A stretch of 34,192 bases of DNA, from positions 1-34,192 of the forward strand of contig CAYRPD010000004.1 in assembly GCA_964426095.1 (NCBI GenBank). Reading direction: 5' to 3'. Origin of the DNA: an uncultured Oscillospiraceae bacterium (GTDB taxonomy: Bacteria; Bacillota; Clostridia; Oscillospirales; Oscillospiraceae). Within the stretch, counting starts at the first letter, position 1, and each line of letters begins with the position of its first letter. Made by a program: the position numbers and the translations under genes. Below, in pieces: positions 56 to 27,908 of this stretch. The notes under the pieces were generated by a model. That model was not told where the DNA came from. It saw nothing but the letters and a program-made list of their open reading frames with translations, and did not search any database.

Positions 56-2698
56 ATGGAAAAGTACGGTCTCAACCAACTTCGCGAGATGTTTCTCAGC
101 TTCTTTGAAAGCAAAGACCATCTCCGTCTGCCCAGCTTCTCGCTCATTCCGCAAAATGATGCGAGCCTGCTGCTCATCAACTCCGGCATGGCGCCCATGA
201 AGCCCTATTTCAAGGGCGAGCAAGAGCCGCCCCGCCGCCGCGTGTGCACCTGCCAAAAGTGCATCCGCACCGGTGACATTGAAAACATCGGCAAAACCGC
301 CCGCCACGGCACGTATTTTGAAATGCTCGGCAACTTCTCGTTCGGCGATTATTTCAAGCATGAAGCCATTGCGTGGAGCTGGGAGTTTCTCACCTCGCCC
401 GATTGGGTCGGCATTGACCCGGATAGGCTCTATCCCTCTATCTACGTGGACGATGACGAAGCCTTTGAGATTTGGAATAAGGAAATCGGCATACCCGCCG
501 AGCGTATTTTCCGCTTCGGCAAAGAAGATAACTTCTGGGAGCATGGCGCAGGCCCGTGCGGCCCGTGCTCGGAGATTTACTTTGACCGCGGCGAAAAGTA
601 CGGCTGCGGCAAGCCCGATTGCACTGTCGGCTGTGATTGTGACCGCTACATGGAAGTTTGGAACAATGTCTTTTCCCAGTTTGATAATGACGGCAACAAT
701 AACTATACCGAGCTTAAGCAGAAGAACATTGACACCGGCATGGGCTTGGAGCGCTTGGCCGTTGTCTGCCAGGGCGTTGATTCCCTTTTCGATGTCGATA
801 CCGTCATGAACATCACCCATAAGGTCAGCGAGCTTACCGGCGCTTACTACGGGAAGAGCCACAAGATGGACGTGTCGCTTCGCGTTATAACCGACCATAT
901 TCGCTCTGCCACCTTTATGATTTGCGACGGCGTTTTGCCCTCGAACGAGGGCAGGGGCTACGTTCTCCGCCGCCTTTTGCGCCGCGCCGCGCGCCACGGC
1001 AAGCTCTTGGGCGTGAACGAACCGTTCCTTTACAAGGTCATTGACACGGTTATTCACGAAAACGAGTGCCAGTACCCCGAGCTTCGCGAGAAGCAGAGCT
1101 ATATTACCAAGGTTGTTAAAACCGAGGAAGAGAACTTTGCTAAGACCATTGATGCCGGCATGAAGATTTTTGCCGACCTTCTTGCCGAGCATAAGGCAAA
1201 GGGCGAAACCGTTTTTTCCGGCGCTGACGCTTTTAAGCTTTACGATACCTACGGCTTCCCCATAGATCTTACGCTTGAAATGTGCGCTGATGACGGCATG
1301 ACCGTTGACGAAGAGGGCTTCAAAGCGCTCATGGAAGAGCAGCGTGTGCGCGCAAGAAAAGCGCGCGAGGCGCTGGGTGACCTCGGCTGGGCGGGTCAGG
1401 AATTCGGCAAGGATGTGCCCGAAACCGAGTATATAGGCTATGAAAACACCGAGTGCACCGGCAAGGTTGTTGCCATTGTCGCCGAAGGCGAGCTGCGCGA
1501 TGAGATAACTTCCGGCACGGAAGCGATAATCGTGCTTGACCGCACTGTTATGTACGCCGAAATGGGCGGCCAAGTGGCCGACCACGCCACTTTGACGGCG
1601 GACGGCGTGAGCTTTGAGGTTAATAATGTCTCCAAGAATAAGGGCGGCAAGTTCATGCACTGCGGCAAGCTCCTATCCGGCGCTGTAAAGCTTGGGGATG
1701 AGCTTCATGTGAGCATTGATGTTGAGCGCCGCAAGGCCGTTTCCCGCGCGCACACCGCGACCCACCTTTTGCAAAGCGCACTCAGACAAGTCTTGGGCGA
1801 CCATGTGCATCAGGCCGGTTCTCTTGTCGAGCCCGACAGACTTCGCTTTGACTTTACGCACTTTTCCGCCCTCACTACGGAAGAGCTTAACCGCGTTAAT
1901 GCGCTCATGGCCGATATGATTCTTGACGGCGCTGAGGTTAACACCAAGGTCATGGCCTATGATGAAGCCAAGGAGCTTGGCGCAACGGCGCTCTTCGGCG
2001 AAAAGTACGGCGACACCGTGCGTGTTGTGACTATGGGCGACTATTCTATGGAGTTTTGCGGCGGTACGCACCTTGATAATACCGCAAAAGTCGGTATGTT
2101 CGTTGTCACCTCCGAGGGGTCAGTCGCTTCCGGCGTGCGCCGCATTGAAGCACTTACCGGGCGCGAGGTTATAAATAGATACGTCAGTATGTCCTCCACC
2201 ATGACAAAGGTTGCCGATAAGCTCAAGGCGCGTCCCGTTGACATCATGGCGCGTGTGGAAAGCAATCTCCTTGAAATCCACGATTTGAAGCAGAACATAG
2301 ATAAGCTCAAAGAGCAGATTATGTCCGGCCAGGCAGAGCGATTGCTGTACGGCGCAAAGGACATTAAGGGGCTGAAAGTCGTCACGATTACAAACGGCCC
2401 TGTTAACGCCGCCGATATCCGCAAAATGGGCGACCAGCTCAAGGATAGATACCCCAACATCGTGGCCGTCCTCGCCGCCACGGCAGAGGATAAGGCGACC
2501 ATGCTTGCCATATGCGGCAAAAACGCCATTGCGCGCGGCATTCGCGCCGGGGATCTTATAAAGACCATTACGAAGCTTTGCGAGGGTTCCGGCGGCGGCA
2601 AGCCCGATTCCGCAATGGGCGGATGCAAAAACCTTATCAAGCTTGACGATGCTATGGCGGCGGTTGACAACTATGTCGATATGAACGCGCAGGACTGA
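56..2698 (+). CDS. alaS: alanine--tRNA ligase (AlaRS)
   Basis: 880-aa ORF with RBS ggagga 9 nt upstream. Class II core FEMLGNFSFGDYFK. Editing-domain zinc motifs HTATHLL and CGGTH. C-terminal GGGKPD segment typical of AlaRS. Confidence 0.97.
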   Translation: MEKYGLNQLREMFLSFFESKDHLRLPSFSLIPQNDASLLLINSGMAPMKPYFKGEQEPPRRRVCTCQKCIRTGDIENIGKTARHGTYFEMLGNFSFGDYFKHEAIAWSWEFLTSPDWVGIDPDRLYPSIYVDDDEAFEIWNKEIGIPAERIFRFGKEDNFWEHGAGPCGPCSEIYFDRGEKYGCGKPDCTVGCDCDRYMEVWNNVFSQFDNDGNNNYTELKQKNIDTGMGLERLAVVCQGVDSLFDVDTVMNITHKVSELTGAYYGKSHKMDVSLRVITDHIRSATFMICDGVLPSNEGRGYVLRRLLRRAARHGKLLGVNEPFLYKVIDTVIHENECQYPELREKQSYITKVVKTEEENFAKTIDAGMKIFADLLAEHKAKGETVFSGADAFKLYDTYGFPIDLTLEMCADDGMTVDEEGFKALMEEQRVRARKAREALGDLGWAGQEFGKDVPETEYIGYENTECTGKVVAIVAEGELRDEITSGTEAIIVLDRTVMYAEMGGQVADHATLTADGVSFEVNNVSKNKGGKFMHCGKLLSGAVKLGDELHVSIDVERRKAVSRAHTATHLLQSALRQVLGDHVHQAGSLVEPDRLRFDFTHFSALTTEELNRVNALMADMILDGAEVNTKVMAYDEAKELGATALFGEKYGDTVRVVTMGDYSMEFCGGTHLDNTAKVGMFVVTSEGSVASGVRRIEALTGREVINRYVSMSSTMTKVADKLKARPVDIMARVESNLLEIHDLKQNIDKLKEQIMSGQAERLLYGAKDIKGLKVVTITNGPVNAADIRKMGDQLKDRYPNIVAVLAATAEDKATMLAICGKNAIARGIRAGDLIKTITKLCEGSGGGKPDSAMGGCKNLIKLDDAMAAVDNYVDMNAQD

Positions 2699-3589: not shown

Positions 3590-4696
3590 TTAAGTATTAT
3601 AGAATGCGGCGATTTCATTCTGACTGTTGGTAACATCCAGCTTGGAAACGTGGGTATAAATATTACGCATAGTCTTTGAATCAGCCCAGCCGCCAATCTC
3701 CATAGCAACGGGTTCAGGTAATCGAAGATGAGCGGCAAGAGAAGCGAAGCTGTGACGGCAGCCATGCACACCTATCTTCGGCAAACTGTTCTCTTTACAG
3801 ATACGATTGATTTGCTTGCACAATGTATTAGGCGCACAGTTCATTACTCGCCCTGATTTAATCGGTGCGGCAGACAGTACATCATAAAGCTGGTTCATCA
3901 TTATAGGAACATCGCGGCGCGAGGTTTTATTTTTGTTCTGCTTCTTGGTGACAAGCTTGTTGTTTTCACCGTACACCATAGCACCGCGCACGTGAATGAC
4001 GCGGTGCACAAGGTCGATGTTGTCCCATGTCAGCGCGAGTATCTCAGAGCGGCGCAGAGAAGACAGCGCGAGGAGCGCGCCGATCTCGCAAGGTTGTCCG
4101 GCGATAGCTGTACAGAAAAGCTTGATTTCTTCCGGCATAAGCCAAGCGTGCTCTTCACTTACCACTTGAGCGGTGCGAATGTTCAGCTTTTGCCCGGTAA
4201 CAGAAGATATGACGGTATTCACAAAACCCCATGCATTATGTACAGTTTTTGTTGCACAGGAGCGGGTCTCTGCGTTTACTGCGGTTTGAGCAACTGCGGG
4301 TGTAATCGCGGAAACTTCCATATCCATAAGTGAGGGGAAGCGCTTGTTTTGGTAGTTCCTATAGGTGCGCACGGTTTCCGGGGATAGTACAGCGTCCTTT
4401 GAAGAAATGTATCTATCTATTGCCTTTGACAGAGTAATGCACTCTGTCTTTTTTTTCGCTTCGATGAAGCCCACGCGGACGGCGCGCGCACGCGCCGTGC
4501 ACAGCTCGGGCGTGTCCTCGGTGATACTCTCGTGCTCGGCGCGAAGCTCAATGTTCCACGCGCCGGAGCTTAACAGCCGGGGCTTTGGCACGCGTATCTC
4601 CTTTTTCTTCTTCCGTTCACGGAGCTGCTTTTCGCCGCACCATTTGCAGAAGATAGAATCATCATCAATCGTGCGCTTGCAATTCTTACAAAGCAT
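3590..4696 (-). CDS. int: tyrosine recombinase / phage integrase with N-terminal zinc ribbon
   Basis: Catalytic-type motifs LRRSE (Arg), HGCRHSF (H-x-x-R) and NIYTHV (Tyr). N-terminal CKNC...CKWC. Located next to the att remnant. Confidence 0.9.
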   Translation of the reverse strand: MLCKNCKRTIDDDSIFCKWCGEKQLRERKKKKEIRVPKPRLLSSGAWNIELRAEHESITEDTPELCTARARAVRVGFIEAKKKTECITLSKAIDRYISSKDAVLSPETVRTYRNYQNKRFPSLMDMEVSAITPAVAQTAVNAETRSCATKTVHNAWGFVNTVISSVTGQKLNIRTAQVVSEEHAWLMPEEIKLFCTAIAGQPCEIGALLALSSLRRSEILALTWDNIDLVHRVIHVRGAMVYGENNKLVTKKQNKNKTSRRDVPIMMNQLYDVLSAAPIKSGRVMNCAPNTLCKQINRICKENSLPKIGVHGCRHSFASLAAHLRLPEPVAMEIGGWADSKTMRNIYTHVSKLDVTNSQNEIAAFYNT

Positions 4697-5762: not shown

Positions 5763-6119
5763 TCAAGAAAATTTAACAAGTCTGCCGCTTGTTATTCGAT
5801 TCGCAAGTTTAGCTTCGCTGATTTCAAAGAAACTTGCAACGTAAAGATAGTTATGTTTTACATCAAGTTTTACGCACACCATCAAATCATCTTCCAAGCA
5901 CTTAACCAACTCTATGCTTTGCGGTTCTTTGGGGTTTTTGCCAATGTAGTCAGGCTCGGCAATGATGGTAGGAATAAGATCTATATCACCAATGCGGGCA
6001 GGGTGTCGCTTCAAAATGTGTTTGGAAAGACCGTTTGATTGGTATATATCACCGCAAGGAATATGTTGCCCGGTTAAAGAATTAAACTTCTCTATGTATT
6101 CTCCGACTATCTGTAGCAT
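5763..6119 (-). CDS. small nuclease-like protein resembling phage Barnase-EndoU-ColicinE5/D-RelE (BECR/PBECR) domains
   Basis: 118-aa ORF with RBS agagg. The layout KHILKRHP...PDYIGKNP...SIELVK...VCVKLD...YLYVASFF...GRLVKF matches my recollection of stand-alone PBECR-type proteins in Firmicutes prophages. The function is not verified. Confidence 0.45.
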   Translation of the reverse strand: MLQIVGEYIEKFNSLTGQHIPCGDIYQSNGLSKHILKRHPARIGDIDLIPTIIAEPDYIGKNPKEPQSIELVKCLEDDLMVCVKLDVKHNYLYVASFFEISEAKLANRITSGRLVKFS

Positions 6120-6328: not shown

Positions 6329-6733
6329 TTATGTGTCGGGAGGTTTATCAATCTCGGCTATCTTCTCTGCGAGCGGGCGGATTATTTCAAGCAGCAGCTT
6401 CCACTGCGAAACATCTGTCTCGGCCATGAATTTTATAAGCTCCTCTTCCAACTCCGTGCGCTGACCGCCGAGAAGCTTACCCATGTATGCGGAGATTTCT
6501 TCCTTGCGGGTGCGTTCTTTGAACATCGGCTCATCGCCGCCGTGCCGCAGCCACAATTCATTCACGCCAAACTCCCGGCAGATATCAGAAATAGTGCGGT
6601 CGCTGGGTGTGCGTTTCCCCTGCTCAATCATCCACACATAGTTTTGAGATAGCTTTATTTTTTCGCCGAAATCTGATTGTGTCTGATTAAAATGTGCGCG
6701 AATAGTCTTGATTCTTTCGCCTATCGTATCCAT
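6329..6733 (-). CDS. cI-like repressor (XRE-family HTH)
   Basis: N-terminal HTH TQSDFGEKIKLSQNYVWMIEQGKRTPS. It diverges from a strong plus-strand promoter. A hairpin at 6316-6349 overlaps its 3' end. Confidence 0.85.
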   Translation of the reverse strand: MDTIGERIKTIRAHFNQTQSDFGEKIKLSQNYVWMIEQGKRTPSDRTISDICREFGVNELWLRHGGDEPMFKERTRKEEISAYMGKLLGGQRTELEEELIKFMAETDVSQWKLLLEIIRPLAEKIAEIDKPPDT

Positions 6734-6755: not shown

Positions 6756-6849
6756 AAAATATCATATCAATCTAACTTTGTCAATAAAAATTTGAAAAAT
6801 TATATTGACAAGCTCTAACTAAGGTGTTATATTAGACTCACAAGTTAGA
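6756..6849. promoter_or_regulatory. genetic-switch region: back-to-back promoters plus three TCTAACT boxes
   Basis: Minus strand: TTGACA (6784-6779), 17 nt, TATTTT. Plus strand: TTGACA (6805-6810), 17 nt, TGtTATATT (6825-6833). TCTAACT occurs at 6771-6777 and 6814-6820 and inverted at 6843-6849. Confidence 0.6.
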
Positions 6850-6872: not shown

Positions 6873-6915
6873 GAAAAAGTGAAGAAGTCAATCAAAAATG
6901 ACTTGACTTCTTCAC
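6873..6915 (-). terminator. intrinsic terminator of the moron operon
   Basis: 13-bp perfect stem gtgaagaagtcaa / ttgacttcttcac, followed on the minus strand by tttttcg. It lies 8 nt after the stop at 6923. Confidence 0.65.
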
Positions 6916-6922
6916 GAGCGGG

Positions 6923-7534
6923 TTAGTCAAGAGCATCTTCAATACGTTGTAAAGATTGGCTGACGGATTCTAGATTGTCATGTACCGACAATATTTCATC
7001 CACGATGCTAGTTTTCTCACTACTGCCCCCCAACTCTTTCATGTATTCATCAAAAGATTGTTTCTTGTCGTTGCTTGAGGACGATTGCTGTGTAGAGTTT
7101 TCGTTAACACGTGCTACCAATTCCCGTGCATATTCATCAAAAGTTTTTTTCTTGCCGTTGCTTGAGGAGATAACGTTATCTTCATCCATGGGAGTTGTTC
7201 CGTTAAGCTCCGGGGTGTTAAAGACTTCTATACTTTGTTTTATTTCATCGACTACATTGTTTGTGCTTTTATCCGTAGAAGAATCTGACAACCAATTGTC
7301 AATTGAATCTAATGCATTGTCGATGTTGCTTTGTGCGGAGGATAATTCTTCACGGAAATTCTCATAGTCGAGTTTGTTTTTGGCTTCATAGTACCCAGAT
7401 TCGTAACCGCGAGCATAGCCCATTTCCCGACCTTCGGCATAGGCGGCATCTAAATCACTTTGTGAATATGTTCCGCAACCGCAGAGGGAAACGAGAAGCA
7501 CCAATGCAAGAATAAACAGAGCAGACTTTTTCAT
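6923..7534 (-). CDS. secreted lipoprotein (moron; possible superinfection-exclusion factor)
   Basis: Start moved to MKKSALFILALVLLVSLCGCG (signal peptide + lipobox L-C-G-C) with RBS aaaggaa. Internal repeat KKxxFDEYxxEL occurs twice. It shares the motif EIKQSIEVFNTPELNGTT with the giant protein. Confidence 0.75.
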   Translation of the reverse strand: MKKSALFILALVLLVSLCGCGTYSQSDLDAAYAEGREMGYARGYESGYYEAKNKLDYENFREELSSAQSNIDNALDSIDNWLSDSSTDKSTNNVVDEIKQSIEVFNTPELNGTTPMDEDNVISSSNGKKKTFDEYARELVARVNENSTQQSSSSNDKKQSFDEYMKELGGSSEKTSIVDEILSVHDNLESVSQSLQRIEDALD

Positions 7535-7548
7535 AATAGCAATTCCTT

Positions 7549-7866
7549 TCAGTGCTTTTTCACAAATGTGAGAATCCACATAGCGATACAGCAGAGAATA
7601 CCCAATGAATCTGAAAGGTTAATTCCCTTGGATAACATCAAACAAATACACGAGCAAATTGTTATGGTGGCAAAAGTGCGGACGGCAAGTCGCTTATTAC
7701 CTTTCTTGATACACACTAGCAACATTGTTCCGTAGGCGGCAGCCATAGCGAAAAGAACGCCTAAAGTTTCAAACACAAATAAGCCGGTTTCCAACACAAG
7801 GACGCGAAAGAAACTAAAGACAAAAAGATAAATCAATGCAGCGAGCAATATTGCCAAAGTAGTCAT
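7549..7866 (-). CDS. small multi-pass membrane protein
   Basis: 105 aa with 3-4 hydrophobic segments and RBS aaaggag. First gene of a two-gene operon with the lipoprotein. Confidence 0.7.
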   Translation of the reverse strand: MTTLAILLAALIYLFVFSFFRVLVLETGLFVFETLGVLFAMAAAYGTMLLVCIKKGNKRLAVRTFATITICSCICLMLSKGINLSDSLGILCCIAMWILTFVKKH

Positions 7867-7908
7867 AGCACAAACTCCTTTATTTATTTTTTACAGAAAG
7901 CTAAACCC

Positions 7909-7937
7909 ATACTACCACGGATGACAATATAAGTCAA
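7909..7937 (-). promoter_or_regulatory. promoter of the membrane-protein/lipoprotein operon
   Basis: Minus strand reads TTGACT (7937-7932), a 17-nt spacer, then TGgTAGTAT (extended -10; hexamer at 7914-7909). Confidence 0.55.
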
Positions 7938-13506: not shown

Positions 13507-13876
13507 ATTTGCTGAAGCATGGCTACGTTGCCGGAACGAAACGCAGGCCGCCGTTGAAGCCGGGTATACCCCGCGCTCGGCACATAATCAAGGCAGTAGG
13601 CTGATGAAGAATGAAGAGGTCAAAGAATATATTCGCGCCCGCCTACGCGCGCAGGACGCGCGCGAGGTTGCCAAGACGGATGAGGTTTTGAAGTTTCTCA
13701 CCGCTGTCATGCGCGGCGAGGAGAAAGACCAGTTCGGTTTAGATGCACAGCTTGCCGATAGAATCAAGGCAGGAGTGGAGCTACTGAAAAGATACACTGC
13801 CGTGGAAGAGGGCGAGGAGAAAGAGGGACAGAACATAGTGATTCATTTTGGCGGCGGAGAGGAGAGCGCGAAGTGA
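13487..13876 (+). CDS. terS: terminase small subunit
   Basis: TTG start after ggaggtg. LTPRQTRFAEAW...AGY...SAHNQGSRLMKN is typical of Terminase_2-type small subunits. Lies directly upstream of terL. Confidence 0.8.
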   Translation: MTPRQTRFAEAWLRCRNETQAAVEAGYTPRSAHNQGSRLMKNEEVKEYIRARLRAQDAREVAKTDEVLKFLTAVMRGEEKDQFGLDAQLADRIKAGVELLKRYTAVEEGEEKEGQNIVIHFGGGEESAK

Positions 13877-17352: not shown

Positions 17353-17664
17353 ATGACTAAGATAATCTATGATGAATCGAACAACGTATTAGAGATAAGC
17401 GGCCACGCAGGAGCGGGAGAGCCGGGAAAGGATTTGGTGTGCGCTGCCGTTACAATTCTCATGCGCACGCTGGAAGCTTCGGTTATGGATAACCGAGCTA
17501 GACTGTGCCCCACGGTGTGCCATAAAGACGGGTATGTAAGAATCCAATGTAACCCCCCACCCAGGGCAAAAGCAAAGAGCAAAGAAATCTTCACCACGAT
17601 ATACCGCGGGTATGAGCTGTTAGCGCAGCAGTACCCGGAGTATGTAAGAACCGTAATATATTGA
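17353..17664 (+). CDS. Prp-type cysteine protease (ribosomal-processing cysteine protease family)
   Basis: 103 aa. SGHAG...GKDLVCAAVT places the His18/Cys30 dyad 12 residues apart, as in Prp. Confidence 0.75.
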   Translation: MTKIIYDESNNVLEISGHAGAGEPGKDLVCAAVTILMRTLEASVMDNRARLCPTVCHKDGYVRIQCNPPPRAKAKSKEIFTTIYRGYELLAQQYPEYVRTVIY

Positions 17665-18748: not shown

Positions 18749-21700
18749 TATGAGTAATAAGATATTAGAAGAAATAGAAAAAAGTATTGCCGCGTATAAT
18801 ACTCCAGAGCTTAACGGCACAACAAAAGCGCAAGCCCCGGCAACGAAAGAAAATGCAAGTAATGCATATAGAATAAATACAATACCTTCTTCGCAGAATA
18901 ACGTGTTAGGCGAAATAGGAAAAAGCGTTGCCGCGTTCAACAATTCTAAGCTTAACGGGACAAACGGCTGGAAAATGAAGTCGTATACGAAAAACCCTCA
19001 AACCAAAGCCAAGAAGAGCGTGGTATCCTATGACCAAGGGGGTAAAGTAAACGCATGGCAAACTGCACTGAACGTTCTAAATGGGATTGACAGTGCAAAG
19101 GTTAAGGCGCTGAGCAATCAGAAGTACAGCGACAGATTCAATGAAGAGGTATTAAAAGAGTATACGGCTCGCGGTGGAAAAACCTTTTTAGGCAAAGCTA
19201 TGAACGCGAATTTGTACAAGCAAATTGAAGATGAGCTTACGCCGAACTATGCTCCGGCGCAAACTTCATATGAAAGAGCCAAACTCCCCGCCAGCATGGC
19301 AAGAGATTCTATCGTTGAAAATGCACAGGCGGCGCAGTATCTAGCTGATTATTACGAGAACCCGACAGTAGCAATCGAGGGAAGCCGAACGAGAGGTAAT
19401 ACCCTTGACTATCTGCAAAAGTATGAAAACATGGGCTTTGGAGAAAAGCTCGCAAACACGGCAGGGAATGCTGTGGTTAACTACGGCCTTGATCTGTCGA
19501 ACACATTGCTTACCGGGGCAGACGCATTAACAGGCGGAAAGCTCAGCAACGGCAACAGCAAAGCAGCTTCTATCTATTCTGCGCTTAACTTTGCGCAGAA
19601 TGCGGGGAGCGGGTTAACCTCTCAAGCTTACAACAGTATGCGTGAAAGCTCTAACTGGTTAGGTAAGCTCATCCTTGACTTGGAGAAAACAAGTGTAGAG
19701 CAATTGCTTGACCGTGCCTTTTCAGCATTTGGCATGAACGGAGCAAACAGCCTTGTATCAATGGGGGCTAGAGTGTTTGGCTCGGGTGCGCAGGAAGCGG
19801 AGAACGAGGGTAAAAGCCTGAGAGAACAGTTATTAACAGGTGGAATACGTTCCGGCATAGAGATTGGGACAGAATTATTAGGCGGTGTCGGCGGCTCGTG
19901 GAGGGGTACGGGTTACGGTGACGCAGTGTTTAACTCGCTGGATAAGTGGGTTGGAACAAAAACGAATAAAGAAATGCTTGGCACTTTGGCAAGCGCATTC
20001 GGCAGTGAAGCGACAGAAGAAATGCTGTCGGATATTCTCAATCCTTTAGCGGATAGAATATTCAACATCAGCAACGGCGATCAGACCTTTTGGCAAGAGG
20101 TATGGGGTGACGGGCAAATCCTTTATGACGGTTTACTGGGTGGGCTTGCAGGATTGGGCGGCGGCCTTGGCACATCTTTTTCTAACGCTTCAGCGGCGAA
20201 GTACTTCGGTGTAGATGTAGCTACATATAAAGCAGCGCAGAGAATAGCCGGAGATAAGAAGCTTCGCAAAAAGTATGAGAAGTATACGGGTGAACACCTG
20301 CAAGAGAATGAATCGACATCCATAATGCAGATAGCCGTTGGCCTTACCGAGACAGCAGAGAAAACAGATAGCACTACCCGTGCGCTTGAAAACGATATCC
20401 GCCAATACAAAGCAGAGCCGCACGGTACGCAGAGCGCCACCACCCCCGCGGCACTCTCCACCTCACAGACGGATACGAGCACACTCGCTGCCGCTAACGT
20501 TGCGCAGAACGCGTCAGAATCGCCCACAACGAACGAGAGCGCGAGGACAAGCACGAATACCACCCCCGCACAAAACTATTCACAGAGCACCATACAGGCC
20601 AAAGCAGCGGCACTCGGAGACATGACCGCAATATACAACGGCGCAGAAGCGCGCGTAACCAGCATGGTGAAAATGGATAACGGGAAGTACGCGGCACAGA
20701 TAGAGTACCCCACCAGCAAAGGCATAAAGAAAAGGCAACTCACCGAAGACAAGCTGACCTTTGACCCGGAGACAAAGCGCCTTATCAATATGTTCCGTCC
20801 GTATGAATACAGCAGCGAAATGCTTTTTAATTACGATGCGCAAAAGGACGGCGGGGAAAACCTTGCGGCGTACACCATGGCCTTTAACACCGTGGCGGAT
20901 ATCCTCGGCAAGCAGACAACGCTTTCTGAGGAAGCGGCGAAGCAGTACGTGCAGGGCGAGCCGGGGCTGGCAAGCACCTTGTCTGAAGAACAGATTACTG
21001 CGGCATTCAGAGCGGGAAGAAAGAGCAAGGATGCGCGTGTACAATCCAGCGTTACTCGCAAGGGCGGCACGGGCAAGCTCGTGTTCGGGAAAAGCATAAC
21101 CGTGCAGGGAATGCAGTACCAAGCCGCCACTGAGGACATGGTAAGCCAAGCAGAGCGGGAGGTGTTGCAGACCGTAGCAAAGGCGGCGGGCGTGGATATC
21201 TTCTTCTATCAGTCTGAGGAAGCGGAGGGCATATACCAAGGGGCAAACGGGTTTTACCGTAACGGCACAGTATACCTTGATGTTAACGCCGGGGCAGAGA
21301 GGACTACGGAGCAGTCGGCAATCCTGCTCACGGCGGCGCATGAACTCACGCACTACCTTAGAGAGAACAACGCCGAGGGTTACGCCGAGCTGCGGGACTT
21401 TGTCACAACGCACCTTATACAGGACGGCACGGACATAGTTACACTTGCCGAGCAAAAGATAAGAAACGAGGGCGGGGAAAACTATGCAGACTTTACATTG
21501 GAAGACGCGATAGAAGAAGTCGTGGCCGACAGCTGCGAAATGATGTTGGAGAACACCCAGCTTCCGCAGATAATGGCGCAAGAAAACCCCGACCTTTACA
21601 GTAAGGTTAGGGGCTGGCTGAGAAAGTTTGTAGAGAATCTGCGCCGCGCGTTCGAGGGCGTGACAGCGAGAAGCCCGGAAGCCCGCGCCATGGTGCAGTA

Positions 21701-24700
21701 TGCCGGGGAGCTTCAGCAGATATGGGACAATGCCCTGGCCGACACCGCATTGAAGCCGAGAGAGAAGCGCGGCGCGAGCGGGAGCACGAAGTATTCTTAT
21801 GCCGGGCGTAATGCAAGCACGGCGAATATGGAGACGCTGTCTAAGGCAGAGGAGCTAGAGCGCAACGGCGAGGATTGGAACACCATACGCAATGAAACAG
21901 GTTGGTTCAGAGGCATGGATAACAAATGGCGATATGAAATCAACGACAGCAATATGGAGTTTCGCAAAGGTGGTGATGTACAGTTACTCGCAGAGCCGGA
22001 GTATCAGCAGCTTATAGATTTGACAGATAAGTGGGCAGCCTCGTTTGACGGCGGTGAAGCTTTAACCGAAGCCGAAGAAAATGAAATGACCCGTTTGAAA
22101 GAAAAATACGGCGCGGAAGTATGGGAAGATAAATATATGCTCCGCGACTTTGTAAAGCATGATGAGCTGTTCGAGGCGTACCCTCGCTTGAACAGTGTCG
22201 GCTTGCAGTTTGATGAACTGCCGGACGGAGTGAAAGGCTATTACAGCAAGCGCGGCAATACGATTATCTTAAATGAAAGCTTGTTTGGTAAAGAGCCTGA
22301 TGTAGTACTGCACGAGATACAGCACATCATACAAAAGATTGAGGGCTTCACCGGCGGCGCGAGCGTTGAGTATTGGGAAGAGCAAATGAAAAACGGTTAT
22401 TCCAAACGAGGAAGCCGTGAATCGGATATGATGCCGGGCGAGCTTTACCGTAATACAGCCGGGGAAATAGAAGCGAGAGACACAGCTTCACGCCGCAAGC
22501 TGACAGCAGAAGAGCGCCGCAGCAATGCCCCTGTACGTGCAGACGAGAACACCGTGTTCGCTGATGATGAACGGTCGTACAGCGTTAGAAATTATAAGGG
22601 CAACAGAATTGTGTGGATTGATACTGATATAACAAAACAAAAACCTAGCGATGTGCCAATACAGGATTATGTCCAGCGATACATATCGGACATGGCATAC
22701 GATAGGAGTGACTTCTTAGCTACATTGCCGGAAAGCGGAATTAACGTGTATGCGGAGAAAAAAGGTAGAACACCGAAAAGCAAATACGGTTTGGCTGAAG
22801 AGTATGTTAGGTCAACTTATTCCCGTTGGCTCAAAGACAACTCCAAGAGTGCATTCCGTGCAAAAATGAAAGCAGCTGGTGTTCTTGATGAATTGGTATC
22901 AATTGCGACTGGGCGGAAGTGGAGCGAAACTGAACACTCGCATAATAAAGACGCAAGGTATGGAGTAGATACGTACAGAAGCTCTTTCGCGTTTCCAGTC
23001 AAAGATAATATGGGTAAGCTTGCAAATGTCAGAGCATACGACTGTAAGCTGATAGTATTGAATGCCAGTGACGGCAAAAAGTATTTATACGATGTGACAG
23101 GAATAAAAGAAAACACCAGTAAGGCAAAGGACGTTCTCCTTTCGGAGCGTCAGAGGGCGGCTTATAGAGCCGCACGCCAAACTGATGTTGTCAACAATAT
23201 ATCACAGCCCGGTGAAGAAGTCAACAGTAAGTTTTCCCGCCGTGCGGCAGATGATACAATGACAAAGGAACAAGTGCGGGAACAGCAGATAAGCCGTGCG
23301 GAGCTGTTGCGGGAGAACGAGGCGTTGAGACAACGCGCAGAGTATTGGAAAGGGCAAACCCAGCTTACCAAAGAAAAGACTGTGCGCAATACGGACACGC
23401 ACAAGTTTGCCCGCGACATGGCGGAAAAGCTTGATGTAAAGAACCGTGAGGCCGTGGCTGAGTTTGAAGACGCGGCGCAGCACATGGGCAATTACATCGT
23501 GCAAAGCGACAGTGAGACCTTAGACTATGACACGCTTCACACCATGGCAAGCGAGACGGCGGATATTCTGTTGAGCAATTCCGAGGTTGAAGTGGAAAGC
23601 GGCATGGAAGAACAGCTCGGTGAGCTTGCCGATTACATCAAGACGCATAAGCTCAAGGTGAACGAAACGGAGCTAAAGGATTTGCCTAAAGAGTGGCTGC
23701 GCCAGCACAGGCGCTTTATCAAACTCAGCTCGGACGGTACACCGATAGATGTGGCATGGCAGGAGTGGCAAGAGCAATTCGGGGAAGGTATGTTCCCCTC
23801 GGACATTACAGCGCAGTCGGATATGCTTCAGCGCCTTGCCGATATAGAGCAGGGCTGGAGAACATATAAGGCCAATCCCTTTGAAAATAACATGGCCGAA
23901 ATGCGGGAGATTGTGGCGCAGGAAATAATAGATACCATGCTCAGCGATGAGATACGGCAGACCGCGCCCACCGCCGCCGACCGTGCCAAAGCCAAGGCAG
24001 ACAAACGCTACTCGGATATGCGACAGGCCGAACGGCAGCGCGCCAATGAGCGCATAGCAAAGGTGCTTGAAGAGGGAAAGCAGCGGACAAAGGATGCGGT
24101 AAAGGCCGAGCGCACATTCCAGCTTCAAAGGGTGGAACGTATACAAAAAATGAATAGCATAAAAAAGCTTCGTGACCGTATGATAAAAAGCCTTACGGAC
24201 AACACGGGCAAGAACCATGTGCCGGATATCCTTAAAGAACCCGTTGCTCAACTGCTGCAGAGCATAGACCCGACAACCAAGCGCACCCGCCAAGCCGGGA
24301 CAAAGCTTTATGTAGAATCTCTTGAAAAGCTTCAGCGGGTATTAGAACAGCAACGCAAGCACAATGCGCATACCTTGGATGAGAACGAAGCCGAGGGCGA
24401 GGGGGCAGATCTGTTCTTCGATATCCCCGTAGAGTTTACCGAGCAGATACAAGATTACGTGGATAACGTTAAGCATTGGGGCGAGTTTTCCAAGACAACA
24501 ACATTCAAGCTGGAAGACATGAGCTTGCAGGGGCTGAACGATTTAGAGAATATTCTGCGCGTGGTGAGGGGTGCTGTCAATAATGTTAACGAGCTGTACG
24601 ATATGAACACAACAGCCTCCGAGCTTGGGAATGAGACGATAAACTATCTTGCGGAGATGAAAGAGAAAACCAAGGTAACGGGTGGAATGGAAAAGTTCCT

Positions 24701-27700
24701 CGGCTTTTCAAACCAAACCCCTGTGTATTACTTTGAGCGCTTCGGTGAAGCGGGAAAGAAAGTAATGAAATCTCTGACGGACGGCTGGGATAAGTTCGCG
24801 TTCTATACGGATGAGATATTGAGCTTCGCAAAGAATCTGTATTCAACAAAGGAAGTGCGCAAGGCCGAGCGAGATATACGTATAGTACAGCTTCATGAGA
24901 CGCTGGCGGACGGATTGACGGACAGCGTAACCGTCCCGGTATCCATGACACGCGCGCAGATAATGAATCTGTACGGCGCGGCACGCAGGGGCGAAGCGTC
25001 ACTTAATCATATTCTCGGAGCGGGTATAGAGATTACGGCAATAAAGCCTAAGGTGGGAAAGGCCACAGCGCAATCTAAAACTTATCTCTTTGAGGATATC
25101 TACGAGCTGGCGCAAATAATAAACGACAATCTCACGGCAAGGGATAAGCAGATAGTAGACGCAATGATAAGCTTCATGAGCGGGCCTGTTGCGAAGTGGG
25201 GTAATGCCGTCAGCCAAGAACGCTGGGGAATAGATTTGTTCACCGAGGAAAACTACTGGCCTATAATAACAACACGCAACAGCCACAATGTATCTAACTC
25301 GGATTCGGCGGGAGCGTCAACCAGCATATACCGCTTAATGAATATGGGATTTACAAAGAAGCTCACCCCCGGCGCGAACAATCCCGTGGTTATCGGCAGT
25401 GCGTTTGATGTGTTCGCTAACCATACTTCGGACATGGCAAAGTACGGCTCAATGGTATTGCCTATCCTGAACACCATGAAGTGGATTAACTACTCTTCGG
25501 CCACGGGCAACAGGACGCTGCAAGCCGGCATAGATTCTGCGTCCCCGGGCAAAGCATATTCCCAGTACACAACCGTGTCCGTGAGAAAATCCATGGATAG
25601 CATATACGGGCGTGAAGCGCAGGACTATCTCGTCCAGCTCTTGCGTGACCTCAACGGCCAAAGCGGCGGGATAAGCAGCGTGGACTTTGTAGATACGCTG
25701 ACTTCAAACTACAAGCGCCAAGCCGTGGCGGCCAATCTGCGCGTGGCCTTGCTCCAGCCCACAAGTATTATCAGGGCATTTCATGTTTTAGAATCGAACG
25801 GATTAAGCATGGATACATTGCGCTCGTTCGCAGTCAAGAAGAATTACGAGGAAGCGAAAGCGAACAGCGGCATAGCACTGTGGAAAGACTTGGGCTTTTA
25901 TGACACTAACATAAATGCCTCTGTGCGAAAGCAGATAAAGCACGATGAAAGCTTTATTGATAACCTCGTAGACAAATCAATGTTCCTTGCCGAGAAAGGA
26001 GACCGGCTGACATGGAGTATCTTGTGGGGTGCGAGCCGACATCAAGTTAAGCAGGAAGCAGCGAAAGTCGGGCAGAAGCTGACGCACGAAGAGCTTATGC
26101 AAAAGACTAATGAGCTTTTCACCACGGTGATATATAAAACCCAAGTGGTGGATTCTCCGCTTACCCGAAGCCAGCTTATGCGCAATAACGATAAGCTTAG
26201 CAAAGCTCTGACTGCGTTCATGGCCGAGCCGACATTAAGCTATAATGTCTTGGCCGAGAATGTACATGAGTTTGCGAGGGAAACCAGCGCGCATGATATT
26301 CCCACGGCGTGGAAGAAATGCGGGAAAAAGATTCTCCGAAGCTTGGTGATATACAGCGCGTCCGCTATTCTCACAGCGGCGGCGGCGAGCCTTGCCGATG
26401 CCGGGAGAGACGATGACGAATATAAAAAGCTTTGGCAAAAGTGGCTGGAAAAATTCAAGGGCGAAGAAAGCTTTTGGGACAGCAACATATGGGCGGAACT
26501 TAATCCTCTTACCAAGCTCCCGGCTATAAAAGATATCTTCAATCTTATTGCCGGGCAGACTTCAAGTAATATGTGGCTTGAGGGATTCGATTCTGCGTAC
26601 AGTGCAGTCAAGAGTATCTATGAGAGAATCGGCGAAAAGGATGATTTGTTCCGGCTAGAAATGAAAGATTGGCAGGTTGCTTATCGCGGATTAAAAGCAG
26701 CGTCCCAGCTCGCGGGGCTACCTCTAATGACATTCACACGAGATGCCGTAGGCTTGTGGAATACAACAGTCGGAGCTTTCACCGGGAAGTATATCCACAA
26801 CTATGACTACGACCAAGAGAAAGCTATACGCAATGCCTACCGCAGCGGGTACTTAGACGAAGAGCAGGCAATGAATCTTCTCATGGATAGGGACACCATG
26901 GGCGACAACGTTTATTTCACGGAGCACGCGGCGCAGGTGAAGATAGCCGACTGGACGAACGACAGCATAGAAGCGATGTACGACAGCCTTTACACCGCTA
27001 TGGAAAACGATGACCGAGCGGGTTTTAATGCGGCAATGGAAAGCCTTGTGAAAGACGGAAAGCGCTATCACTATGATGTGATAGGCAATGTCCGAAGCAC
27101 GATTAAGGAGTGGTACATCGGCGATGAACACGGGGCATATAAGCTCAACAGGGACATGGCCGTGGATATGCTGACGGATTACGGCGGGTACACTACGGAC
27201 GATGCAAAGAAGACGGTGCACCAATGGACGTGCGAGAAAGTAGAGGGCTTCAGCTACACCAACCGGAAAGAGTTGTTTCTGCTCGGAGATATCACGAGGG
27301 ACGAAGCGATTAAGCTTGTAATGGCATACGGCAAGGACGATGACGGCAAGCTTCTTTCCGACTATGAAGATAAGTCCGCCGCAAGGGAAGCAGCCGAAAA
27401 GGAAGTGCAGACTTGGCAAATGGCGCTTGACACCAAGATAGACTACGAGAAAATCCGCAGTGCCTATGATGCCGGAGAAATAAGTGAAGCGCAGCTGAAA
27501 GAGTATCTCATGACATACGGCAGTTTAGAAGAAGAATCCGCAGAAAATAAAGCGTACCTTTGGCAATGGAAAGAGGGCGATGACAAGCTGGGAAGTATTA
27601 CGAGCGCGCAAGCGCGGCGGTATGATAACTACATTGTCGGCGCGGGCGTAGACATTACCAAGGAACAGTATGCGAATTTCATTGACGGAAACTTGGCAAG

Positions 27701-27908
27701 TGAGTTTAGCGGTGATCTGAAGCCTGGGAGTACAACCTCTTATATACCCTACAGCAAGCGAAATAAAATATGGGCGTACATAGACACTCTGCCACTAACC
27801 CCGGAGGAAAAGGACGCAATGGCTGTTGTATACGCATACGATAATAATCCGGACACTTCGGCAAATTCTTCGTATTTCGATTTGCAAGAAGCCCCTTGGA
27901 ACAACTAA
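18726..27908 (+). CDS. giant multi-domain (polyvalent-type) virion protein, 3,060 aa
   Basis: Single uninterrupted ORF. An alternative start at ATG 18750 lies 1 nt after the upstream stop. Features are the duplicated N-terminal motif, a Gly-rich region, HELTH (21339-21353), HEIQH (22311-22325), a nuclease-like module, coiled-coil stretches and a large C-terminal region. Confidence 0.85.
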   Translation: MKGIITSNMSNKILEEIEKSIAAYNTPELNGTTKAQAPATKENASNAYRINTIPSSQNNVLGEIGKSVAAFNNSKLNGTNGWKMKSYTKNPQTKAKKSVVSYDQGGKVNAWQTALNVLNGIDSAKVKALSNQKYSDRFNEEVLKEYTARGGKTFLGKAMNANLYKQIEDELTPNYAPAQTSYERAKLPASMARDSIVENAQAAQYLADYYENPTVAIEGSRTRGNTLDYLQKYENMGFGEKLANTAGNAVVNYGLDLSNTLLTGADALTGGKLSNGNSKAASIYSALNFAQNAGSGLTSQAYNSMRESSNWLGKLILDLEKTSVEQLLDRAFSAFGMNGANSLVSMGARVFGSGAQEAENEGKSLREQLLTGGIRSGIEIGTELLGGVGGSWRGTGYGDAVFNSLDKWVGTKTNKEMLGTLASAFGSEATEEMLSDILNPLADRIFNISNGDQTFWQEVWGDGQILYDGLLGGLAGLGGGLGTSFSNASAAKYFGVDVATYKAAQRIAGDKKLRKKYEKYTGEHLQENESTSIMQIAVGLTETAEKTDSTTRALENDIRQYKAEPHGTQSATTPAALSTSQTDTSTLAAANVAQNASESPTTNESARTSTNTTPAQNYSQSTIQAKAAALGDMTAIYNGAEARVTSMVKMDNGKYAAQIEYPTSKGIKKRQLTEDKLTFDPETKRLINMFRPYEYSSEMLFNYDAQKDGGENLAAYTMAFNTVADILGKQTTLSEEAAKQYVQGEPGLASTLSEEQITAAFRAGRKSKDARVQSSVTRKGGTGKLVFGKSITVQGMQYQAATEDMVSQAEREVLQTVAKAAGVDIFFYQSEEAEGIYQGANGFYRNGTVYLDVNAGAERTTEQSAILLTAAHELTHYLRENNAEGYAELRDFVTTHLIQDGTDIVTLAEQKIRNEGGENYADFTLEDAIEEVVADSCEMMLENTQLPQIMAQENPDLYSKVRGWLRKFVENLRRAFEGVTARSPEARAMVQYAGELQQIWDNALADTALKPREKRGASGSTKYSYAGRNASTANMETLSKAEELERNGEDWNTIRNETGWFRGMDNKWRYEINDSNMEFRKGGDVQLLAEPEYQQLIDLTDKWAASFDGGEALTEAEENEMTRLKEKYGAEVWEDKYMLRDFVKHDELFEAYPRLNSVGLQFDELPDGVKGYYSKRGNTIILNESLFGKEPDVVLHEIQHIIQKIEGFTGGASVEYWEEQMKNGYSKRGSRESDMMPGELYRNTAGEIEARDTASRRKLTAEERRSNAPVRADENTVFADDERSYSVRNYKGNRIVWIDTDITKQKPSDVPIQDYVQRYISDMAYDRSDFLATLPESGINVYAEKKGRTPKSKYGLAEEYVRSTYSRWLKDNSKSAFRAKMKAAGVLDELVSIATGRKWSETEHSHNKDARYGVDTYRSSFAFPVKDNMGKLANVRAYDCKLIVLNASDGKKYLYDVTGIKENTSKAKDVLLSERQRAAYRAARQTDVVNNISQPGEEVNSKFSRRAADDTMTKEQVREQQISRAELLRENEALRQRAEYWKGQTQLTKEKTVRNTDTHKFARDMAEKLDVKNREAVAEFEDAAQHMGNYIVQSDSETLDYDTLHTMASETADILLSNSEVEVESGMEEQLGELADYIKTHKLKVNETELKDLPKEWLRQHRRFIKLSSDGTPIDVAWQEWQEQFGEGMFPSDITAQSDMLQRLADIEQGWRTYKANPFENNMAEMREIVAQEIIDTMLSDEIRQTAPTAADRAKAKADKRYSDMRQAERQRANERIAKVLEEGKQRTKDAVKAERTFQLQRVERIQKMNSIKKLRDRMIKSLTDNTGKNHVPDILKEPVAQLLQSIDPTTKRTRQAGTKLYVESLEKLQRVLEQQRKHNAHTLDENEAEGEGADLFFDIPVEFTEQIQDYVDNVKHWGEFSKTTTFKLEDMSLQGLNDLENILRVVRGAVNNVNELYDMNTTASELGNETINYLAEMKEKTKVTGGMEKFLGFSNQTPVYYFERFGEAGKKVMKSLTDGWDKFAFYTDEILSFAKNLYSTKEVRKAERDIRIVQLHETLADGLTDSVTVPVSMTRAQIMNLYGAARRGEASLNHILGAGIEITAIKPKVGKATAQSKTYLFEDIYELAQIINDNLTARDKQIVDAMISFMSGPVAKWGNAVSQERWGIDLFTEENYWPIITTRNSHNVSNSDSAGASTSIYRLMNMGFTKKLTPGANNPVVIGSAFDVFANHTSDMAKYGSMVLPILNTMKWINYSSATGNRTLQAGIDSASPGKAYSQYTTVSVRKSMDSIYGREAQDYLVQLLRDLNGQSGGISSVDFVDTLTSNYKRQAVAANLRVALLQPTSIIRAFHVLESNGLSMDTLRSFAVKKNYEEAKANSGIALWKDLGFYDTNINASVRKQIKHDESFIDNLVDKSMFLAEKGDRLTWSILWGASRHQVKQEAAKVGQKLTHEELMQKTNELFTTVIYKTQVVDSPLTRSQLMRNNDKLSKALTAFMAEPTLSYNVLAENVHEFARETSAHDIPTAWKKCGKKILRSLVIYSASAILTAAAASLADAGRDDDEYKKLWQKWLEKFKGEESFWDSNIWAELNPLTKLPAIKDIFNLIAGQTSSNMWLEGFDSAYSAVKSIYERIGEKDDLFRLEMKDWQVAYRGLKAASQLAGLPLMTFTRDAVGLWNTTVGAFTGKYIHNYDYDQEKAIRNAYRSGYLDEEQAMNLLMDRDTMGDNVYFTEHAAQVKIADWTNDSIEAMYDSLYTAMENDDRAGFNAAMESLVKDGKRYHYDVIGNVRSTIKEWYIGDEHGAYKLNRDMAVDMLTDYGGYTTDDAKKTVHQWTCEKVEGFSYTNRKELFLLGDITRDEAIKLVMAYGKDDDGKLLSDYEDKSAAREAAEKEVQTWQMALDTKIDYEKIRSAYDAGEISEAQLKEYLMTYGSLEEESAENKAYLWQWKEGDDKLGSITSAQARRYDNYIVGAGVDITKEQYANFIDGNLASEFSGDLKPGSTTSYIPYSKRNKIWAYIDTLPLTPEEKDAMAVVYAYDNNPDTSANSSYFDLQEAPWNN

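Follow-up and report, generated by a model that had tools for sequence, protein, structure and literature searches.

A prophage lipoprotein sharing a private motif with the N-terminus of its phage's giant head protein: a possible role in superinfection exclusion

Background

Why does a prophage encode a surface lipoprotein with the same short motif that stands, in two copies, at the N-terminus of the giant head protein of its own phage? The question was raised by an earlier note, made from the letters of a stretch of 34,192 nucleotides of an uncultured Oscillospiraceae bacterium (the whole stretch is called the window hereafter), which proposed that the lysogen displays a decoy of a protein ejected by the incoming phage. 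Exclusion lipoproteins and membrane proteins act on phage proteins that are delivered into the envelope, and the source of their specificity is mostly unknown. We analysed the cassette that encodes the lipoprotein, the giant protein, the motif that they share and the related prophages, and we weighed the possible explanations against each other.

Results

The cassette and the slot beside the repressor

The features of the window that are discussed here are collected in Table 1. The earlier note had described a self-contained minus-strand cassette with a promoter and a terminator of its own, and actually every element sits at the positions that it claimed. The terminator hairpin has a folding energy of -23.2 kcal/mol (z = -5.4), and none of the shuffled sequences folded equally well (0/200). 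The cassette has the repressor on one side and the early genes on the other and shares the strand of the repressor and the integrase of the lysogeny module, and the repressor has a separate promoter-like site at 6784-6756(-). From its position, its strand and its promoter-like site, the cassette should be expressed in the lysogen. We also observed a strong plus-strand promoter-like site at 6805-6833, which runs antisense through the cassette.

Table 1. Positions in the window of the cassette, the head module and the three copies of the motif.
Feature	Position	Strand	Details
XRE-type repressor	6329..6733	(-)	directly downstream of the cassette; lysogeny module
Intrinsic terminator	6874..6915	(-)	hairpin 6915-6879, 13-bp core stem; T-run 6878-6874
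203-aa acidic lipoprotein ORF	6923..7534	(-)	
Motif in the lipoprotein	7193..7261	(-)	NNVVDEIKQSIEVFNTPELNGTT, aa 92-114; amphipathic helix, then NTPELNGTT turn
Signal peptide and lipobox	7475..7534	(-)	MKKSALFILALVLLVSLCG; lipidated Cys20 at 7475-7477
105-aa membrane protein ORF	7549..7866	(-)	first cassette gene (facultative); AGGAG ribosome-binding site
Promoter-like site, sigma-70-like	7909..7937	(-)	TTGACT-17-TAGTAT, upstream TG; 9/12 consensus positions (consensus match alone)
P22-like portal	15325-17349	(+)	head module upstream of the giant gene
Prp-like protease	17353-17664	(+)	head module upstream of the giant gene
356-aa protein	17678-18748	(+)	directly upstream of the giant gene
Giant polyvalent MuF-type head-module protein	18750..27908	(+)	3,052 aa from the revised start
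Motif copy 1 in the giant	18756..18824	(+)	NKILEEIEKSIAAYNTPELNGTT, residues 3-25
Motif copy 2 in the giant	18897..18965	(+)	NNVLGEIGKSVAAFNNSKLNGTN, residues 50-72

Regarding the related prophages, we gathered 80 loci through the large terminase subunit. The giant ORF was present in only 4 of them, plus the window, and these terminase-related loci contained neither an analogous prophage lipoprotein nor the motif. The slot beside the repressor holds different cargo in near-identical prophages. One of them (L090), whose flanks are 96-97% identical to the window, has an allele of the lipoprotein whose signal peptide is unchanged, whose body has diverged and which lacks the motif, and in two others with the same giant motif (L095 and L096) the slot is filled by a 393-aa gene that does not encode a lipoprotein. 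As there are same-tag phages without the lipoprotein as well as a lipoprotein allele without the motif, the pairing of the motifs is dispensable. A further locus (L102) has a lipoprotein with 98.7% identity over 130 codons, and the adjacent repressor differs at 17% of its nucleotides. Another lipoprotein allele carries the changes N92S, V94L and V104D. The membrane gene is present in L001-L005 and absent from the lipoprotein-bearing variants L090 and L104, therefore the two genes of the cassette are not an obligate pair. The contigs that we found via homologues of the 356-aa protein (10-kb flank) end around 1 kb short of the slot, and the window is the only contig that spans both the lipoprotein gene and the giant gene.

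Thus, the cassette has its own promoter and terminator, there is alternative cargo in the same slot and the flanks are 96-98% identical, as is typical of phage morons. The best explanation is that it is a prophage moron, that is, an accessory block placed in the immunity region.

The two products of the cassette

The 105-aa product had been called a multi-pass membrane protein, and its hydropathy agrees, with four hydrophobic segments at residues 6-24, 35-53, 60-78 and 84-102. Searches of Pfam, PHROGs, PADLOC and NCBIfam gave no match for it. The 203-aa product is a lipoprotein, again as proposed, since a canonical signal peptide and lipobox (MKKSALFILALVLLVSLCG/C, Cys20) can be read directly from its sequence. 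We defined a bacterial lipoprotein (Lgt/Lsp substrate) by a basic n-region, a hydrophobic core and a lipobox of the form [LVI][ASTVI][GAS]C; the protein starts with MKK-SALFILALVLLVS-LCG-C and has a lone hydrophobic segment at residues 4-22. This region is unchanged in all the members of the lipoprotein family (5/5).

The mature lipoprotein is strongly acidic (net charge -21) and predicted to be mostly helical or disordered, with further internal helical repeats and indels. Its AF2 model is helical with a pLDDT of 43 and the model of the giant leader has a pLDDT of 36, values that make both models too poor for a fold search or for the geometry of binding. Among 5.8 billion proteins we found only 4 homologues, all near-identical and on contigs of at most 2.4 kb, and no family could be assigned from them. 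Variants of the lipoprotein are contained in the sequencing runs SRR25400518, SRR35641739, SRR25400522, SRR14160769 and SRR25400510. A tblastn search against the GenBank phages gave no match for the lipoprotein. The earlier note had likened it to Ltp, the exclusion lipoprotein of Streptococcus phage TP-J34; a Pfam scan with E up to 10 did not return the family Lipoprotein_Ltp, which we take to be that of the Ltp repeat domains. Likewise, the PHROG exclusion families were not matched, nor was any PDB sequence (E up to 10), and among the defence profiles of PADLOC-DB the lipoprotein gave only a noise-level match to Csm3 (E = 0.033) and the membrane protein nothing.

The giant head protein

The giant gene is located between the portal and Prp genes and the scaffold and major capsid genes. 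Its start is most likely the ATG at 18750 and not the one at 18726, because of a TAAtATG coupling to the upstream ORF; most of the independent contigs have gene calls at the equivalent of 18750, while two use the upstream ATG. With this start, copy 1 of the motif begins at residue 3. The protein has the marks of a polyvalent protein, with matches to LPD23 (E = 6.6e-24), phrog_22978 (E = 1e-139) and the metalloprotease phrog_87 and two HExxH zincin motifs (HELTH and HEIQH), and a related giant in another locus (L100) combines LPD23 with MuF_C. From the position of the gene and its domain content, we infer that the giant is probably packaged and ejected. Giant polyvalent head proteins are common in gut Clostridia prophages.

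The first 90-100 residues of the giants form a hypervariable leader, which is wholly different even among giants whose following core is around 54% identical; the L110 type is one example of a relative with another leader. Copy 1 of the motif is identical in L093-L099. The NTPELNGTT tandem tag has no Pfam domain match, and aa 1-526 of the giant gave no match in a tblastn search against the GenBank phages. When aa 1-210 were compared with 5.8 billion proteins not even the giant itself was recovered, and therefore giant proteins seem to be absent from that database.

The shared motif

The central claim of the earlier note was that a segment of the lipoprotein (residues 92-114) is common to both N-terminal copies in the giant ORF, and this claim holds. 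It had placed the copies in the giant at 18750-18824 and 18891-18965; the location is right, but these ranges carry 2-4 extra flanking residues. The lipoprotein (aa 87-114) and the giant (aa 6-33) are 54% identical over 28 residues (38.1 bits), with NTPELNGTT identical at 9/9 positions between the lipoprotein and copy 1, as had been noted; the identity with copy 2 is 54% over 24 residues.

The same note took the conservation to be at the protein level, and the codons bear this out. In the nine identical codons of the lipoprotein and copy 1, 5 of 7.0 synonymous sites differ and 0 of 20 non-synonymous sites, although the latter value is partly built in because the segment was picked for its identity. 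With synonymous sites this close to saturation, a recent copying of the DNA is excluded. The distances among the three copies are about equal, which makes the triplication an old one that has been maintained. On this codon evidence, the motif is selected at the protein level.

A common low-information repeat, the result that the earlier note had named as fatal to its proposal, is not what we found: a profile search of 1.84 billion representative proteins returned the lipoprotein alone. A looser, 46-bit degenerate DNA pattern gave zero matches in IMG/VR and zero in the JGI metagenomes. The exact DNA pattern for NTPELNGT had 2 matches in IMG/VR, both of them unrelated chance matches. We also considered other roles for the motif. 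It does not resemble the QxFA-type N-termini of the capsid and scaffold proteins, as a Prp cleavage site would. E-L-N-G-T fits the N-glycosylation sequon D/E-x-N-x-S/T, but copy 2 lacks the acidic residue and this candidate found no support. Nor is a tandem motif a generic feature of giant N-termini, since only the window and L025 have a repeat that stands out statistically; the internal duplication in the giant of the window has z = 10 against shuffles.

In order to know how frequent such sharing is, we examined 18 comparable loci, 16 from other lineages and 2 from a close relative with different cargo. None of their N-termini had such a match to another ORF of the same locus, and the only match reported among these control loci was of low complexity. 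The sharing of the motif is thus a single evolutionary instance among comparable prophage loci.

Discussion

Exclusion through a copy of the tag

Among the possible functions of the cassette we consider superinfection exclusion the most likely one; that it uses its copy of the tag to shut out phages of its own lineage is plausible, with a probability of roughly 35%. The acidic lipoprotein, as the constant product of the cassette, would be tethered on the outer face of the cytoplasmic membrane and would display there a third paralogue of the lineage-specific N-terminal tag of the phage's own giant. An incoming phage of the same lineage would eject its internal proteins, which would then meet the tethered copy. 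This copy could either pair with the tag helices of the incoming giant, acting as a poison subunit, or fill a site that the tag of the giant must engage, and in both cases the conduit for DNA delivery would not form. That the tag copy of the lysogen blocks genome delivery by same-leader phages in one of these two ways, by homotypic pairing or by competition for a docking site, and that the hypervariability of the leader reflects an arms race with prophage mimics, is a further proposal and on present evidence an unlikely one.

In support of exclusion we counted the place of the cassette in the lysogeny module, on the strand of the repressor and with its own promoter and terminator; the swappable cargo of the slot, as expected for conflict genes; a motif that is private, selected at the protein level and at the extreme N-terminus of the giant; and the hypervariable leader together with the precedents of Ltp and SieA. 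Against it we counted that the lipoprotein has no match to exclusion or defence families, that the sharing of the motif is a one-off and that the pairing is dispensable. Furthermore, the repressor already confers immunity to homoimmune phages, so the selective benefit of exclusion is not obvious.

Regarding the precedents, exclusion genes of the Ltp type belong to the lysogeny module; the target that Ltp binds is the tape measure protein, which the incoming phage delivers into the envelope, and the acidic residues of Ltp matter (PMC3952083). The lipoprotein described here resembles Ltp of phage TP-J34 of Streptococcus thermophilus in being a prophage lipoprotein of the lysogeny module, strongly acidic when mature and with a predicted tether outside the cytoplasmic membrane. 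However, it has no sequence similarity to Ltp, it lacks the Ltp repeat domains and it is predicted to be helical or disordered, and its phage has a P22-type portal, with no tape measure gene in the window. Moreover, Ltp is not described as sharing sequence with its target (PMC3952083), in contrast to the lipoprotein studied here.

A P22-type portal is also found, according to the available text on SieA, in the phages that this protein of P22 blocks. SieA blocks DNA delivery, and the mutations by which phages escape it lie in the ejection proteins gp16 and gp20 (PMC10883804, available text). On that description the cassette resembles SieA in being predicted to be prophage-expressed and membrane-located, and the giant would belong to the same logical class of targets as the ejection proteins. 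SieA is an integral protein of the inner membrane of a Gram-negative host, whereas here we have a lipoprotein, and the available text reports no motif common to SieA and gp16 or gp20 (PMC10883804). As for the giant, polyvalent proteins, among them the N4 virion RNA polymerase, have been proposed to be packaged and injected (Iyer et al. 2017), and for the N4 polymerase an N-terminal helical region is needed for injection (PMC5512222). The giant is like the polyvalent proteins in its LPD23 domain, its zincin HExxH motifs and its place among the virion genes after the portal; that a polyvalent protein shares a motif with a prophage surface protein, as the giant does, is a case that the available passages on these proteins do not mention (PMC5512222).

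The host seems to be of another kind than the hosts of the small exclusion lipoproteins of T5 and phi80/N15: judging from the hosts of the related prophages, it appears to be a Gram-positive-type member of the Clostridia (Oscillospiraceae-like). Those lipoproteins, Llp of T5 and Cor of phi80 and N15, prevent superinfection by binding and blocking the outer-membrane receptor FhuA. To our knowledge, neither Llp nor Cor resembles a phage protein.

Other explanations

Instead of exclusion, the cassette might be an accessory or lysogenic-conversion moron that has nothing to do with the giant, for instance a factor that serves the envelope or the fitness of the host, or one that defends it against unrelated phages, and a helix-turn module would have been moved by illegitimate recombination and kept in each protein for structural reasons of its own. 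We regard this explanation as possible, though somewhat doubtful. It agrees with a motif shared only once among comparable loci, with an interchangeable cargo beside a constant giant tag, with the one lipoprotein allele that lacks the motif and with the internal repeats and indels of the lipoprotein, which suggest a loosely constrained modular protein. However, the 9-residue core has stayed intact despite near-saturated synonymous sites, in two contexts that are highly diverged elsewhere, and separate structural constraints on an exposed, low-confidence helix-turn in two unrelated proteins are not easy to conceive. The motif occurs in no other protein of 1.84 billion, therefore it is not a generic structural cap.

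The evidence of the motif would be the same if the lipoprotein aided the phage, either as an envelope docking or assembly factor for the tag of the giant or by sparing the progeny a wasteful ejection into lysed or lysogenic cells, as T5 Llp does via FhuA. The promoter-like site at 6805-6833, antisense to the cassette, would suit such a role, as it suggests that the expression of the cassette is coupled to the lysis-lysogeny switch. Nevertheless, the lipoprotein is missing from close relatives that have the same giant tag and is thus not required for infection, and the orientation and position of the cassette are typical of prophage-expressed genes. In our opinion this role is quite improbable.

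A chance match between two sequences biased to S/T/N/D/E/K is more improbable still. The Smith-Waterman score of the lipoprotein against the whole window proteome is 87, and none of the 3,400 shuffled lipoproteins reached it (0/3,400), although the shuffle null is heavy-tailed and comes as close as 85. The BLAST E value, when scaled to the proteome of the window, is 9.6e-5, only about 1e-4, and the 356-aa protein gives compositional matches of similar score to the giant ORF. Nevertheless, the alignment is compact and ungapped with an exact 9-mer, for which the estimated chance of occurring anywhere in the window proteome is around 4e-4. Only 3 9-mers are common to different six-frame ORFs of the window, namely NTPELNGTT, its antisense mirror and one in the collagen-repeat region at the window end. 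Furthermore, both tandem copies are matched in register and at the extreme N-terminus, and the comparable control loci have no comparable match.

Finally, it is hardly credible that the three copies are a DNA or RNA element (a protein-binding site or a packaging signal) or that selection acts on the frames of the antisense ORFs: the DNA of the three 50-nt stretches is 62-72% identical, with AGCTTAACGG common to all, and the ORFs 6975-7367(+) and 18587-18943(-) both hold the 9-mer VVPLSSGVL, but all 5 differences of the core fall at third-codon positions of the sense frame, which points to coding selection and not to a nucleic-acid site, the antisense 9-mer is the mirror expected because the third positions of both frames coincide, and of the sense frames one is an ORF of 3,052 codons and the other encodes a lipoprotein whose signal peptide is conserved.

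Conclusions

Should the motif turn out to play no part, what is left is an ordinary moron in a variable slot. If, on the other hand, the tag copy is what works, exclusion would have a simple specificity that can be read from the sequence, namely the display of the target's own interaction motif. Exclusion through the tag copy would also give a first function to the N-terminal leader that is hypervariable among the giant polyvalent head proteins, and it would provide a 23-residue handle for direct testing.

The lipoprotein cassette and its surroundings

The minus-strand cassette described in the earlier note was recovered in all its parts, with the two ORFs, the promoter-like site, the hairpin followed by a T-run and the canonical lipoprotein signal as claimed (see the table). 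The mature lipoprotein is very acidic (net charge -21), its structural model is helical or disordered (pLDDT 43), and no match to it was found in Pfam (also up to E 10), PHROGs, PADLOC, NCBIfam or the PDB sequences. Therefore, we rejected its membership in the family of Ltp, the exclusion lipoprotein of Streptococcus phage TP-J34.

Region 6756-6833 has a back-to-back pair of promoter-like sites, that of the repressor (6784-6756, minus strand) and a strong plus-strand site (6805-6833, TTGACA-17-TATATT with TG upstream, 11/12), which points toward the early genes and would drive transcription antisense across the entire cassette. With this arrangement, the cassette looks as if it had been inserted into the region of the genetic switch; transcription in the lytic state might silence it.

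Coordinates of the prophage features, in window order
Feature	Position	Strand	Remarks
alaS (host gene)	56-2698		prophage begins after it
Integrase	3590-4696	minus	
Solo PBECR3 nuclease	5763-6119	minus	Barnase/EndoU/colicin E5-D/RelE-like; lysogeny module, adjoins repressor
XRE repressor	6329-6733	minus	between PBECR3 gene and cassette
Terminator hairpin and T-run	6915-6879 (hairpin)	minus	-23.2 kcal/mol, z = -5.4
203-aa lipoprotein ORF	6923-7534	minus	lipoprotein signal MKKSALFILALVLLVSLCG before C
105-aa ORF	7549-7866	minus	four hydrophobic segments
Promoter-like site	7937-7909	minus	TTGACT-17-TAGTAT, TG upstream
Early and replication genes, small terminase subunit (TerS)	from ~7959	plus	
Large terminase subunit (TerL)	13873-15309	plus	head module
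P22-like portal	15325-17349	plus	head module
103-aa Prp-like cysteine protease	17353-17664	plus	NCBIfam Prp; PF04327 on sister contigs
356-aa protein	17678-18748	plus	directly before giant ORF
Giant ORF (3,052 aa)	18750-27908	plus	motif copies at 18756-18824 and 18897-18965
Scaffold-like ORF	start about 28078-28125	plus	3' of giant ORF
Major capsid protein	29131-30222	plus	3' of giant ORF
'Internal virion protein'	30944-32689	plus	
Collagen-like ORF	about 32900-34192, third reading frame	plus	G-X-Y repeats (KGDKGDKGD...); probably a tail fibre; open at window end

Regarding the other genes, the PBECR3 nuclease may be a toxin or an abortive-infection-type moron. The N-termini of the major capsid protein (MFKYEWIQYFA/DAG, 29131-29175, plus strand) and of the scaffold-like ORF (MYKFNWLQTFA/EGS) look like L27/Prp-type cleavage sites, a type of N-terminal cleavage known in S. 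aureus phage 80alpha. The 356-aa protein belongs to a large family (2,385 homologues) and has a T/S/A/Q-rich low-complexity stretch in common with giant residues 554-722 (24% identity over 170 residues, E = 5e-7 without composition correction), a match that is probably compositional. TerL is 57-70% identical in 80 prophages, all of them in genomes of Oscillospiraceae, Ruminococcaceae or other gut Clostridia, and therefore the host is probably a Gram-positive-type member of the Clostridia.

A motif shared with the giant protein

A stretch of the lipoprotein does match the giant ORF twice, as the earlier note had seen. Giant residues 6-33 align ungapped with lipoprotein residues 87-114 (54% identity, 38.1 bits), NTPELNGTT being identical at 9/9 positions in copy 1, and a second lipoprotein alignment falls on giant residues 56-79. 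None of 3,400 shuffled lipoproteins compared with the whole window proteome reached the observed score, although the null is heavy-tailed (maximum 85 vs 87 observed), which is a point in favour of chance; after scaling to the window proteome the E-value is ~1e-4. As an empirical control, the first 100 residues of the corresponding protein at each of 18 other loci were compared with every other ORF of that locus; no comparable match was found, and the sole hit reported was of low complexity.

The conservation is at the protein level, as had also been proposed. A comparison of the nine core codons in the lipoprotein with those in copy 1 shows differences at 5 of 7.0 synonymous sites and at 0 of 20 non-synonymous ones (72% nucleotide identity overall). 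The choice of segment partly guarantees the absence of non-synonymous differences, but it does not account for synonymous sites being close to saturation. This saturation rules out a recent DNA transfer, and a nucleic-acid-level element is ruled out because every core difference lies at a third codon position. Three exact 9-mers are common to different six-frame ORFs of the window, namely NTPELNGTT, its antisense mirror and one in the collagen-repeat region. The mirror, VVPLSSGVL, is present in antisense ORFs 6975-7367 (plus) and 18587-18943 (minus) because all core differences sit at third codon positions; these positions coincide in both frames, and we rejected it as a second shared motif.

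The three copies are roughly equidistant (52-61% pairwise identity), so the one in the lipoprotein is an old third paralogue rather than a recent duplicate of one in the giant protein. A profile built from all three copies, which themselves score ~70 bits against it, matched the lipoprotein alone among 1.84 billion representative proteins and nothing in 80 related prophage loci or seven further loci. A degenerate DNA pattern (~46 bits) finds 3/3 copies in the window and had no match in IMG/VR or the JGI metagenomes. The motif is thus not the common low-information repeat that the earlier note had named as the contrary outcome, and in these searches it is private to the phage lineage of the window.

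The giant protein and its leader

The stop codon of the upstream ORF runs straight into the giant start codon (TAAtATG), and gene calls on most independent contigs start at 18750, with an upstream ATG in two. Given this start, copy 1 begins at giant residue 3 (MSNKILEEIEKSIAAYNTPELNGTT), and copy 2 begins at residue 50; a helix and then a loop are predicted in both. The giant protein is a polyvalent one: it carries LPD23 and a pair of HExxH motifs and matches phrog_22978, and MuF_C is present in a relative. The position of the giant gene after the portal is that of the MuF/gp7-type head proteins, for which packaging and injection have been proposed (PMC5512222); by analogy, the giant protein is presumed to be injected.

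Relatives whose core is ~54% identical from about residue 90 onward have wholly different leaders of 90-105 residues: a GREQLLNQI / GRDRLLKQI tandem in related loci L006 and L007, a Lys/Thr/Pro-rich leader in L110-L112, and another type again in L100 and L107. Within the window's lineage, copy 1 is invariant in 7/7 other contigs, which come from other sequencing runs or assemblies, and four amino-acid changes are found in the linker that separates it from copy 2.

The protein encoded behind the 356-aa homologue frequently opens, in other prophages, with a short motif (residues 2-3) that recurs around residues 35-50; the sequence of this motif is lineage-specific. The pair in L025 (13381-13600) is AFNKNKWEKKYADALASVR / SFNKENWERKYADSLAAIR (z = 16); the repeats in L006:7534-7680, L080:20339-20500 and L043:14899-15050 are suggestive only.

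Variation of the slot in near relatives

The position of the cassette beside the repressor varies in content. Contig L090, with flanks 96-97% identical to the window, lacks the membrane gene, and its lipoprotein allele (P0005) keeps the signal peptide and first 34 residues, has a diverged body and is without NTPELNGTT. L104 has a motif-bearing lipoprotein without the membrane gene. Therefore, of the two-gene operon described earlier, both genes stand in the window, but the pairing is not obligate. The lipoprotein of L102 is 98.7% identical over 130 codons, and the adjoining repressor differs at 17% of nucleotides and 31 residues. Of the five substitutions in this lipoprotein, three change amino acids within the helical portion of the motif (N92S, V94L, V104D), a clustering with an estimated chance of ~0.01, judged post hoc.

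The slot of L095 and L096 holds a 393-aa non-lipoprotein gene on the minus strand (L095:1-184, L096:1-181; start MDIYTSTFKTCYSKCCRKLSKSPIAHNYKF..., first 61 residues readable), while both contigs have the same giant tag and a 356-aa protein 98% identical to that of the window. Thus, the pairing of the lipoprotein with the giant tag is not obligate either; the two genes were found together on one contig only in the window.

Possible function

Several traits are those of a prophage exclusion gene: its position and strand, its autonomy, the variability of the slot, the anchoring at the surface and the acidity of the protein. There are precedents for exclusion genes aimed at proteins delivered by an incoming phage, since Ltp, which the lipoprotein does not resemble in sequence, acts on the tape measure protein (PMC3952083) and P22 SieA on ejection proteins (PMC10883804). 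Tag mimicry is a plausible and coherent mechanism, because a surface lipoprotein bears a private, selected copy of the extreme N-terminal tag of the giant protein. This copy would pair with the tag of the incoming giant protein or, alternatively, compete for its docking site. We give superinfection exclusion through the motif a probability of roughly 35%. Slightly less probable is that the lipoprotein is an unrelated moron and the motif a shuffled structural module, and a pro-phage helper role of the lipoprotein is unlikely. Chance or a DNA-level explanation, even taken together, is very improbable in view of the shuffles and the third-position differences. A residual share of the probability goes to none of these readings.

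The interpretation in the earlier note is therefore partly supported: what it says on the anatomy and the motif is borne out, and the mechanism that it proposes is plausible. Evolutionarily, the motif sharing represents one instance only. We would best class the feature as a prophage surface-lipoprotein moron resembling exclusion genes, unusual in having a motif in common with a protein that the same phage is presumed to inject.
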